Source of the DNA: Fimbriimonadia bacterium
GTDB taxonomy: Bacteria > Armatimonadota > Fimbriimonadia > Fimbriimonadales > JABRVX01
Direction of reading: 5' to 3'
DNA: 64,000 bases
Assembly: GCA_041483895.1 (NCBI GenBank)
Contig: JBGPGO010000009.1
Location: 108,880 to 172,879, forward strand
The position numbers were made by a program, and so were the translations under genes. This document shows, piece after piece, positions 58,558 through 60,492 of the stretch. A model generated the notes under the pieces. That model was not told the DNA's origin. It made no database searches and saw nothing but the letters and a program-made list of their open reading frames with translations. How positions within the stretch are numbered: the stretch's first letter is position 1; each line of letters starts with the position of its first letter.

Positions 58558-59280
58558 TTAGACTTCGTCTTCCGGCGCGGCCTGCTGCATGAACAGGAAT
58601 TTATACAGGACCGCCGCCAACGCCGCCCCGATGAACGGCATTGTGAGATAGATGCCAGCCTGGGTAAGGTTTCCCGCTGCGATCGCCGGTCCCAAGTATC
58701 GGGCGGGGTTCAAGGACGCCCCGGTAATGTTGCCGCCAACCAAAATCGTCGCCATGATGATGCCGCCGATGGCAAAGCCAAAGAACTGCTTGCCCTGGCG
58801 CCTCGAATCCACCGCGCAGGAAAGCACGACCCACGCCAAGACAAACGTAAGGATGGCTTCGGTCATTCCGGCCCGCATAGGGCTGACATCGCCTTCGGAT
58901 CCGCCCACGAAGTTCGGCGTGCCGAAATAAAATGGTTCGAGCCCAGCCATCCGCGGGAACATGACCCGCAGCGCAAAGCCGGCCAAGATGGCGCCGACAC
59001 ATTGGAACGCCATATAAACGAACGCGTACGCAAGGCTGATCTGGCCGGAGATCCACATCGCGATATTTATGGCTGGATTGATGGAAGCGCCGGAAACATG
59101 TGCGGTCCCATACTGTGCGGCCATCATGCCAAGACCGCTCGCTAAAGCGATGATCACGAGGTGGCCCGGCTCCGCGGTGCCGGAAACCGCCAATCCGCAA
59201 ATCGAGCCGGCGCCCATCAAGACAAATATGAATACACCGAACATTTCGGCCAAGCCGGCCTTCAACAGTCCTTGTTGCAT
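58558..59280 (-). CDS. MIP family channel (aquaporin)
   Basis: SGASINPA and GASLNPAR. Confidence 0.93.
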   Translation of the reverse strand: MQQGLLKAGLAEMFGVFIFVLMGAGSICGLAVSGTAEPGHLVIIALASGLGMMAAQYGTAHVSGASINPAINIAMWISGQISLAYAFVYMAFQCVGAILAGFALRVMFPRMAGLEPFYFGTPNFVGGSEGDVSPMRAGMTEAILTFVLAWVVLSCAVDSRRQGKQFFGFAIGGIIMATILVGGNITGASLNPARYLGPAIAAGNLTQAGIYLTMPFIGAALAAVLYKFLFMQQAAPEDEV

Positions 59281-59342
59281 GCGCAGACCTCCTTAAGTGA
59301 ACCTGCTCTCGGTTCGACGAAAACGCAATCGATCCTACCCGC

Positions 59343-59401
59343 AAAAATTCTTAAGTTTTTTTCAAAAACCGCTTGACAAACTGTTTGCTTTCTGCTAAGA
59401 T
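59343..59401 (+). promoter_or_regulatory. Strong sigma-70 promoter with AT-rich UP-like element
   Basis: A/T tracts at 59343-59368, TTGACA 59373-59378, 17-nt spacer ending TGC, TAAGAT 59396-59401. No + strand CDS follows. Confidence 0.85.
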
Positions 59402-59408
59402 AGTCCTT

Positions 59409-59765
59409 GCCGCCGGGGGAAACCTCTGCGGTGCTGGAGAGGGGAAACTCTCGAAGGCGGCCTGAGACGGCGAACGGTTCACTCGTTCTTTCAAGTGTTC
59501 CAACTCCTGTCCTGGCTTTGAGTTCTTCGAAAGAGGGGCTTGGAGTAGACGGAGCGTCTCTCCTAACATCGGGTCGGCGAAAGCTGGTCTGTGGGAGAGA
59601 GATAGCTTGATAGGGATGCAGAACGCAGCCACCGGGCCTTCGGAGAAGGTTCTTTTGCTCGTGACCGGCGGCAACGTTGGTTAGACGAAAGGACTGGAAC
59701 CGGGGACCACCTGATGGTGTGCACTCGCAAACTGACAAGGGACGAGTAACGTCACCTCTCAGGCC
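59409..59765 (+). ncRNA. Unassigned large structured RNA (~360 nt)
   Basis: Five GNRA-capped G-U-rich helices; long closing rod GGCCUGAGA/UCUCAGGCC; dedicated promoter. Confidence 0.8.
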
Positions 59766-59774
59766 AAAACCTTT

Positions 59775-59816
59775 AAAAGAATAGAAGCCTGCCGGCAGCC
59801 ACATCCGACAGGCTTC
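59775..59816 (-). terminator. Hairpin with a T-rich tail on the - strand, probably ending the redoxin transcript
   Basis: GAAGCCTGTCGG...CCGGCAGGCTTC then TATTCTTTT on -. Confidence 0.6.
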
Positions 59817-59823
59817 GTTCGCA

Positions 59824-59900
59824 TGGATGGCTCCGTTCCATTTGCATGCTCCGTTCCATCGGAGCCGAGCTGTACGGCTCCGATGGAACGGAGCCCTCCA
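59824..59900. repeat. REP-like 20-bp perfect inverted repeat with a partially duplicated arm
   Basis: GCTCCGTTCCATCGGAGCCG-AGCTGTA-CGGCTCCGATGGAACGGAGC (59848-59894), plus TGGATGGCTCCGTTCCAT at 59824. Confidence 0.75.
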
Positions 59901-59906
59901 ACTGAA

Positions 59907-60410
59907 CTATTCCTCTTTCGGTTTGCAACCCGTGCTTTCGATTGCCTGACGCAACAGCTCGTCGTCAATCTTCTCGAATCGATGCGTGATCATGCCCTTC
60001 TTGTTGATCACGAACAACGCCGGAAACTTCTTGACGTTGAACAGCAAAGCGATCTGACGCTGGGCCGAACCGTCAACCACGAAATCGAACGAGCAGCCGG
60101 TCTCTTTCTTCCACTGCTTCGCCATCGTGTCCGTGCCGTTGACGCATAGGGCGATCACGCCAAGGTCCTTGTATTCGGACCCGTAATACTGCTGTAGGAA
60201 GGCAAAATCACTGGGATCCGCCCCGCTCTCAAACGAGTAGAAGTACAAAATCGTCGCGGGCTTCTTGCCAATCGTTGCCTTGAGATTGAGCCTGCCGCCG
60301 GTCGCCTTGACGATCGAAACGTTCGGTACAGTCGAGCCGATCCCGACGGGATCAGCGGTGGCAGCCACCATTCCAAGGATCAGGGCTGCAGCAGTCAATA
60401 GTCGCGTCAT
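59907..60410 (-). CDS. Exported thioredoxin-fold (redoxin/TlpA-like) protein lacking CxxC
   Basis: IGSTVPNVSI, ILYFY and FNVKKFPALFVINKKGMI. Confidence 0.7.
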   Translation of the reverse strand: MTRLLTAAALILGMVAATADPVGIGSTVPNVSIVKATGGRLNLKATIGKKPATILYFYSFESGADPSDFAFLQQYYGSEYKDLGVIALCVNGTDTMAKQWKKETGCSFDFVVDGSAQRQIALLFNVKKFPALFVINKKGMITHRFEKIDDELLRQAIESTGCKPKEE

Positions 60411-60492
60411 TCGGCCGCCTCCTAAGGGGTTAAAGGGATGCACCAAGCTTGATTTTCGGCAGAAGCCAGGCCCCCATGTAGCCGTGAGACAA

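Follow-up and report, generated by a model that had tools for sequence, protein, structure and literature searches.

Genomic Context and Promoter

The window, that is, the whole 64,000-nucleotide stretch of the Fimbriimonadia bacterium contig that was analyzed, contains a predicted RNA gene on the + strand, in an intergenic gap whose flanking genes were both confirmed to lie on the − strand. An aquaporin-family (MIP) gene (58558–59280), divergent from the RNA, occupies one side, and an AhpC/TSA-domain gene (59907–60446), convergent with it, occupies the other. The aquaporin gene is also the neighbor in two related genomes (G001 and G002) and in a metagenome contig (L027); the AhpC/TSA-domain gene is not a conserved neighbor. 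The promoter claimed in the original prediction, of the sigma-70 type (TTGACA-17-TAAGAT, + strand), was found at 59373–59401, with the −35 hexamer at 59373–59378 and the −10 hexamer at 59396–59401, and transcription would start at about 59408–59409. A scan for the promoter pattern returned one site, compared with 0.6 expected in shuffles. The A/T tracts described upstream were also present: the 30 bases 5' of the promoter form an A/T-rich, UP-like element (59343–59372, + strand) with an A/T fraction of 0.77, the highest among the 51 TTGACA-N17-TAnnnT sites of the genome.

Around the window RNA and 21 homologs, the neighbors varied from genus to genus, and no protein family co-occurred beside the RNA. 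Because the neighboring genes differ between genera, the RNA appears to act alone and not as a leader. It is highly improbable that the locus encodes a protein, serves as a cis-regulatory leader or antisense RNA, or folds by chance. In genus g8, a pilus-ATPase gene often lies 3' of the RNA on the same strand, as would suit a leader; however, the window has no same-strand gene downstream, genera vary in what lies downstream, and in families f3 and f4 the basal stem of the RNA is followed by a U-run. On the − strand, two open frames (107 and 180 codons) run across the RNA, and in G001 and G002 the MIP frame extends back over it, which would fit a coding or antisense role. Against this, all three + frames contain stops, a 1-nt indel separates G001 from G002, and the − frames of the window are out of phase with MIP.

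Several other elements were observed near the RNA or its homologs. At 59784–59816 of the window, a hairpin is followed by a U-rich run on the − strand; by reading, this is probably the terminator of the convergent gene, although the terminator scan did not list it. Between the RNA and that gene, a long, near-perfect, REP-like hairpin of repeated units spans 59826–59897, for which Rfam gave only sub-threshold microRNA matches. In genus g13 (L053:1912–3114, L052, and L056), the gene 3' of the RNA carries a bacterial archaeo-eukaryotic release factor family 10 domain. The promoter of the G062 copy (L061:1479–1776) is followed by a CRISPR-like array with repeats of about 30 nt, and several palindromic repeats lie 5' of the RNA promoter in G029 (L097:1950–2200).

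Predicted Fold of the RNA

The + strand folded at −166.7 kcal/mol with a z-score of −4.70, and 0 of 100 shuffles were as good, compared with a z-score of −1.51 and 7 of 100 shuffles for the − strand; the claim of a highly structured + strand RNA was thus borne out. Eight of the eleven helices originally proposed are complementary and have pair probabilities of 0.70–1.0. These are the GNRA-capped helices at 59415–59426, 59439–59452, 59515–59546 (14 bp), 59571–59590, and 59664–59681, the helix 59557–59564/59593–59600, and the long-range pairs 59459–59467/59757–59765 and 59481–59490/59738–59747. The other three are complementary, yet their pair probabilities do not exceed 0.08: 0.06–0.08 for the GUUCCA/UGGAAC pairing, 0.0 for GUCCU/AGGAC, and at most 0.05 for the hairpin at 59634–59652. 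They lose because an arm at 59613–59733 and a helix at 59491–59496/59605–59610 win. The latter helix, with a pair probability of 0.44–0.65, carries an A-U to G-C compensatory change in G001, G002, and L027. The CCUAAC/UGUGG segment, which had been likened to a tetraloop receptor, differs at two positions from the consensus of the 11-nt receptor and is missing in the homologs. A terminator-like site at 59634–59652 was rejected, because its pair probability does not exceed 0.05 and because it is crossed by each of the four RNA contigs described below.

All parts of the predicted RNA lie on the + strand. Its 5' end is formed by hairpin 1 (59409–59432), with a G-rich stem and a GAAA loop, in which 4 of 10 pairs are changed on both sides among homologs. 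Hairpin 2 (59433–59458; inner stem 59439–59452, GAAA loop) is a tandem copy of hairpin 1 that is present in the window, G002, and L027 and is not in G001 or the other families. The 5' strand of the basal stem P1 (59459–59490) pairs with 59738–59765; in the P1 counterpart of family f4, 10 pairs are 100% paired, and 3 of them are changed on both sides. The P2 domain follows (59491–59614), and the compensated helix 59491–59496/59605–59610 closes its three-way junction, the second of the RNA. From this domain extend arm A (59504–59554), which is variable and forms a 14-bp GAAA hairpin in the window RNA, and arm B (59557–59600), which is GAAA-capped there. Arm A is replaced by branched hairpins of about 130–155 nt in G001, G002, and L027 and measures about 65 nt in f4; arm B ends in an invariant loop, GCCCCAG, in 23 sequences of f4. 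The domain contains a conserved UAGG at 59611–59614, also found in 29 of 30 homologs, the match in G014 being another UAGG. Arm C (59613–59733) is long, irregular, and nearly fixed in length, and its apex helix (59662–59683) has a GCAA loop with an asymmetric internal loop beneath. The purine-rich junction strand, which bears a CYRAMA-type motif found in 28 of 30 homologs, and the 3' strand of the basal stem complete the RNA (59732–59765).

Homologs and Their Distribution

Using BLAST and a second model, the RNA was found in 31 of 151 genomes of the order Fimbriimonadales: 3 of 3 in family f1, 1 of 1 in f3, 27 of 29 in f4, 0 of 98 in f2, and 0 of 20 in f5, genome G036 being counted only in the f5 tallies. 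The second model contained 20 of the 31 carriers; the other 11, the f3 member among them, were found from outside the model. The order was placed as Fimbriimonadales, Armatimonadota, from the source names of the relatives' neighboring proteins. The homologs are 265–450 nt long, with a single match in 30 of the 31 carrier genomes. BLAST with the window RNA recovered only G002 among 60 relatives, and the wider homologs required models. G002, G001, and L027 carry a 425–450-nt form at the same position beside the aquaporin gene.

A first model built from three sequences gave one weak f4 match (E 0.0036) and missed all other f4 genomes; the bridging matches between families had E-values of 0.0036 and 2.6e-4. 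On inspection, the first f4 match had a TTGACA-18-TATAAT promoter, the same 5' hairpin, the basal stem, the U-run, and a z-score of −5.57. The f3 homolog has the promoter, hairpin, and motifs, with a z-score of −7.6, and seven homologs folded on the sense strand ranged from −2.5 to −7.6. The junction sequences and the loop of arm B are unlike among f1, f3, and f4, and a sequence-only profile of 23 full-length f4 RNAs fails, at E 5, to detect the window RNA in the genome that carries it; the case for a link between families is therefore made by the promoter, the hairpin, the topology, and the order and spacing of the motifs. On these grounds, the RNAs of f1, f3, and f4 are very likely homologous.

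No perfect 18-nt match to the RNA was found elsewhere in the genome, and sequence profiles returned no second copy or paralog there. In samples of the phylum, the RNA was found in 1 of 151 genomes, the window's own, where scoring covered 19 candidates per genome out of a maximum of about 2,800. When 39 chosen genomes were searched more leniently, no real match appeared in 15 f5, 18 f2, and 4 other-family genomes, nor in the f4 genome G041. A class sample gave 0 of 120 in f2 and 0 of 12 in f5. At the limited sensitivity of these searches, all such results mean "not found" rather than "absent".

The pattern of the arm C apex matched in 34 of 401 genomes, and 30 loci were examined; the 26 outside known carriers, which had no promoter-hairpin-UAGG combination and scored at most 18.8 bits, were rejected. 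Two weak matches of the first model were likewise discarded: the one in G110 is a low-complexity repeat, and the one in G180 extends into a coding region. A pattern scan over genome contigs that included the aquaporin gene returned two loci from another phylum. The shortest homolog (L060:1456–1720 in G014, 265 nt) has no TTGACA and a reduced arm C, and archease was not detected in its genome. A second, partial copy (L101, G081:C93) lies at the end of a 1.6-kb contig; since it matches the G077 copy by eye, the contig is probably a stray.

Shared Anatomy and Covariation

The anatomy was counted over 30 near-complete copies, from 29 of the 31 genomes and L027; the copies of G056 and G062, cut by contig ends, were left out. 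A TTGACA-N17/18-TAnnnT promoter is present in 28 of 30. A GG(G)-GNRA-YY hairpin opens every homolog (29 of 30 by pattern; the pattern match for G026 was spurious, and its hairpin was read from the sequence). In the common plan, a basal stem unites both ends and leads to a first three-way junction, from which the P2 domain and arm C emerge; the second three-way junction, within P2, gives rise to arm A, which varies greatly, and to arm B. The arm C apex helix with a GCAA-type loop occurs in 30 of 30 homologs; in 29 of 30 the UAGG precedes the apex by 47–55 nt, and in 28 of 30 the junction motif follows it at 41–50 nt. These spacings hold while the interior of arm C is rebuilt between families, from a long helix in f1 to a four-way junction in f4.

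Compensatory changes were found in the homologs. In 23 f4 sequences, 37 of 83 pairs were changed on both sides and 95.2% of cells were paired. This and the following counts are not tree-corrected; they lean on related sequences, from which the structure was also drawn. None of 500 shuffles reached so high a count, and slid controls gave at most 14 pairs. RNAalifold alone gave 29 of 65 pairs changed on both sides in f4. The 3' part, compared across two families (21 sequences), had changes on both sides in 20 of 30 pairs; in the apex of arm C, 8 of 8 pairs were 100% paired in these sequences, 2 of them with changes on both sides.

Comparison with Known RNA Families

The search against Rfam 15 proposed with the original prediction gave no significant match: no family reached its gathering score on the window, the best match inside 59330–59800 had an E-value of 1.3, and 12 homolog loci had no match near threshold. 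The literature searched on Armatimonadota RNAs, a scope that excludes the supplementary lists of two motif surveys (PMC5737381, PMC11109978), held no description of it. With good confidence, the RNA lies outside every catalogued family, and our best reading is that it represents a new class of large structured bacterial RNA.

The housekeeping RNAs were found on other contigs of the genome, namely RNase P RNA, tmRNA (C5:54630–54984), 6S RNA (C7:194702–194875, 46.9 bits), and the large SRP RNA. RNase P RNA is present elsewhere in 6 of 6 carriers, and the large SRP RNA proper in 6 of 6 carriers tested. In the window RNA, neither the P4 pseudoknot with conserved regions I and V, nor any score for RNase P RNA, nor the tRNA-like ends and tag frame of tmRNA were found. 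The large bacterial SRP RNA resembles it in its 5' hairpins, its end-joining long stem, its three-way junction, and a GNRA-capped arm with an asymmetric loop; in contrast, domain IV, with its GNRA loop and symmetric loop, was not found in the window RNA, and there was no profile match between the RNA and the SRP locus of the genome. As an observation on RNase P itself, the RNase P RNA at G000:C17:36170–36590 (L004) is 421 nt long with one long extra helix, whereas the RNase P RNAs of five f3 and f4 genomes measure 337–348 nt.

6S and Ms1 RNAs are long duplexes with a single-stranded, open central bubble. The window RNA, which had also been read as an expanded 6S/Ms1-like RNA, resembles them in being standalone and abundant, with paired ends and a long irregular arm of fixed length. 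It could thus be a polymerase decoy working like 6S or Ms1, in which the basal stem stands for downstream DNA and arm C for the upstream promoter arm; in f4, invariant CC and GG runs near the central junction permit two exclusive pairings, as might a switchable bubble. However, the RNA has no open central bubble: in its place are a three-way junction and a large extra domain of 120–240 nt, the entire P2 domain, on the 5' side of the junction. Moreover, a separate 6S RNA is present in 3 of 3 f1 and 3 of 12 f4 genomes, and neither the 6S nor the Ms1 model of Rfam scores. The 6S/Ms1-like reading of the original prediction was therefore not upheld, and a decoy of this kind is improbable.

Two other classes offer partial likenesses. 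raiA RNA is an abundant, standalone class of 200–300 nt with a conserved core and variable arms, and the window RNA shares these traits; unlike raiA, it belongs to another phylum, gives no Rfam score, and showed no covarying pseudoknot. Y RNAs have Ro60/TROVE as partner, which is usually encoded adjacent to them; TROVE was found in 1 of 5 carriers and not in the window genome. ROOL and GOLLD RNAs form cages through kissing loops and are linked to phages or plasmids. The phage collections gave no match to the RNA and the plasmid collections only pieces under 40 nt; the viral pattern matches (4 + 1) proved to be matches of the apex alone and not of the RNA.

OLE RNA (RF01071) is about 600 nt long, has the oapA gene directly downstream, and contains a kink-turn to which OapC, of the L7Ae family, binds. 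Many carriers of the window RNA presumably belong to a hot-spring lineage, judging from source names, a point of likeness to OLE. No oapA-like gene was seen among the listed frames neighboring the window RNA and 21 homologs; CNNM-domain matches in 5 carriers lie away from the RNA, in open frames of 456–754 codons. None of 5 carriers yielded an L7Ae-family protein, and by reading, the loop beneath the arm C apex does not match a standard kink-turn register. OLE is described as a large, ornate, multi-junction RNA with parallel helices, protein sites, and a five-way junction, P3–P9 (PMC12286853). Being likewise a large, ornate, multi-junction bacterial RNA, the window RNA nevertheless differs from OLE: its class spans about 300–450 nt, has two nested three-way junctions instead of a five-way one, and receives no Rfam score.

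Kissing loops and A-minor contacts build the ROOL, GOLLD, and OLE-dimer complexes (PMC12286853). That the window RNA likewise forms an RNA-only multimer through such contacts is quite unlikely. All its apical loops are GNRA loops, and f4 combines an invariant C-rich loop with invariant G runs; however, the loops show no covarying pair between them, f1 and f3 do not have the C-rich loop, and OLE is at least about twice as long as the RNA.

Expression in Metatranscriptomes

Among 24 sequencing runs with 6–12% of the query words, 21 are recorded as RNA, and the evidence of expression comes from four of these runs, from four studies. Each gave one contig at least 99% alike to the window and ending inside the predicted RNA: 59438–59764 in X1 (soil, depth 843; 842.7 before rounding), 59454–59762 in X3 (sediment, depth 689), 59416–59744 in X7 (freshwater sediment, depth 34), and 59453–59735 in X10 (river, depth 5.4). 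The sole listed difference in the X7 contig, C to T at 59452, preserves the pair as G-U in hairpin 2. In the same runs, no contig of at least 99% likeness covered the other 3.5 kb, including the flanking genes, so stray DNA does not explain the RNA contigs; the missing coverage of the flanking genes cannot rank expression, and contig depth is not a true level. The contigs reveal neither strand nor start, and both are therefore inferred here. We further infer high abundance or high stability of the RNA.

With compensatory change in the homologs, contigs confined to the RNA, and housekeeping RNAs located elsewhere, the main proposal of the original prediction stands: the RNA is abundant, structured, and standalone, and it belongs to a large class that Rfam does not contain. 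That the RNA is real, expressed, and conserved is almost certain.

Circular Contig and the RtcB-Archease Pair

The X1 record is 357 nt long and consists of 327 nt plus a 30-nt self-overlap. It thus describes a circular unit (59438–59764) that joins 59764 to 59438 and does not include hairpin 1. The joint, present in one run of the four, was not seen in the X3, X7, and X10 contigs. The X1 circle may be real or a library artifact; it is a lead and not a result.

The circle admits a reading in which the working form of this conserved RNA class is a chromosomally encoded, covalently closed circle. The archaeal-type RtcB-archease ligase would close it after trimming at about +30, and it would serve as a stable scaffold whose arm acts as a ruler. 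Its stability would account for persistence in environmental RNA, and each end of 59438–59764 lies at the foot of a helix. An assembler that clips dead ends can make a circular contig from a rare joint. Such clipping could yield the X1 contig, and end-to-end joining in library making requires no homology. X1 also has one unplaced difference in the piece next to the joint, and the X7 contig extends to 59416, past the joint on the upstream side, which means that linear RNA exists. In Danan et al. (PMC3326292), template-switch artifacts are betrayed by repeated bases at the joint, and Sulfolobus has minority circles of RNase P RNA as well as such artifacts. The X1 joint has no letters common to both sides and no flanking repeat, which favors a true circle.

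Precedent exists in Bacillus, where DucS and SRP RNA form circles (PMC10504365); these are, like the window RNA, chromosomal non-coding RNAs, they have linear and circular forms, and one DucS joint lies 26–35 nt after the start. In contrast, DucS acts on an mRNA, and the circle of the window RNA was seen once, in contigs, the two RNAs having been compared via Rfam only. The same study reports that read-based candidates were confirmed in 0 of 5 cases in B. subtilis and 0 of 8 in E. coli (PMC10504365).

An archease-rtcB gene pair lies on the RNA's own contig, and archease was found in 20 of 22 RNA carriers versus 4 of 39 non-carriers. This pattern is not independent evidence because it follows the three families, that is, kinship; furthermore, G014 and G017 have the RNA with archease undetected. 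Taking the two sides together, we regard a mature RNA closed by RtcB-archease as unlikely. With respect to the ligase genes themselves, at G000:C9:29141–31069 (L132) the archease gene is immediately 5' of an RtcB gene with a very high Pfam score. RtcB is present in 37 of 41 genomes, and the f2 genomes have only a lower-scoring RtcB without archease. In G005, G020, G026, G032, G035, and G038, the RtcB match is split near model position 50 within open frames of 777–1060 codons, suggestive of an intein.

The end at 59438 could also be produced by the RNA itself if it were a new class of ribozyme. Its large size, its invariant core nucleotides, and the defined end in X1 would suit this; however, no ribozyme model scores, and the 59437/59438 site lies within the duplicated hairpin that is missing from G001, f3, and f4, which makes self-cleavage very unlikely.

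Proposed Role and Significance

The reading that we prefer, and to which our analysis assigns a probability of about one half, is that the RNA represents a new standalone, very abundant, and stable structural class that would act as a scaffold or bind a partner, as OLE and raiA do. A transcript of about 360 nt would be made from the housekeeping-sigma promoter, and the basal stem and 5' hairpin would protect its ends. The GNRA loops may dock on helices to give a rigid helical bundle, in which the near-invariant apex of arm C, held at a fixed distance from the central junction, would be offered to a protein or a larger machine as a putative binding site. Fixed G-U pairs are typical of recognition sites, and the apex helix contains them. 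Arm A would tolerate insertions. Cleavage at about +30 may remove hairpin 1 in this species, and a fraction of the molecules might be circularized, with the RtcB-archease ligase as a plausible agent.

Few classes of large structured RNA are known in bacteria, and the ones with a known function are ribozymes or core machines. If the candidate already stands in published motif lists, the novelty of the class would be reduced. The RNA described here unites covariation, lineage-wide retention, and evidence of expression, and it is small enough for immediate transcription, probing, and imaging. The circle, if true, would define a conserved bacterial circular-RNA gene family and provide a candidate substrate for the bacterial RtcB-archease pair.
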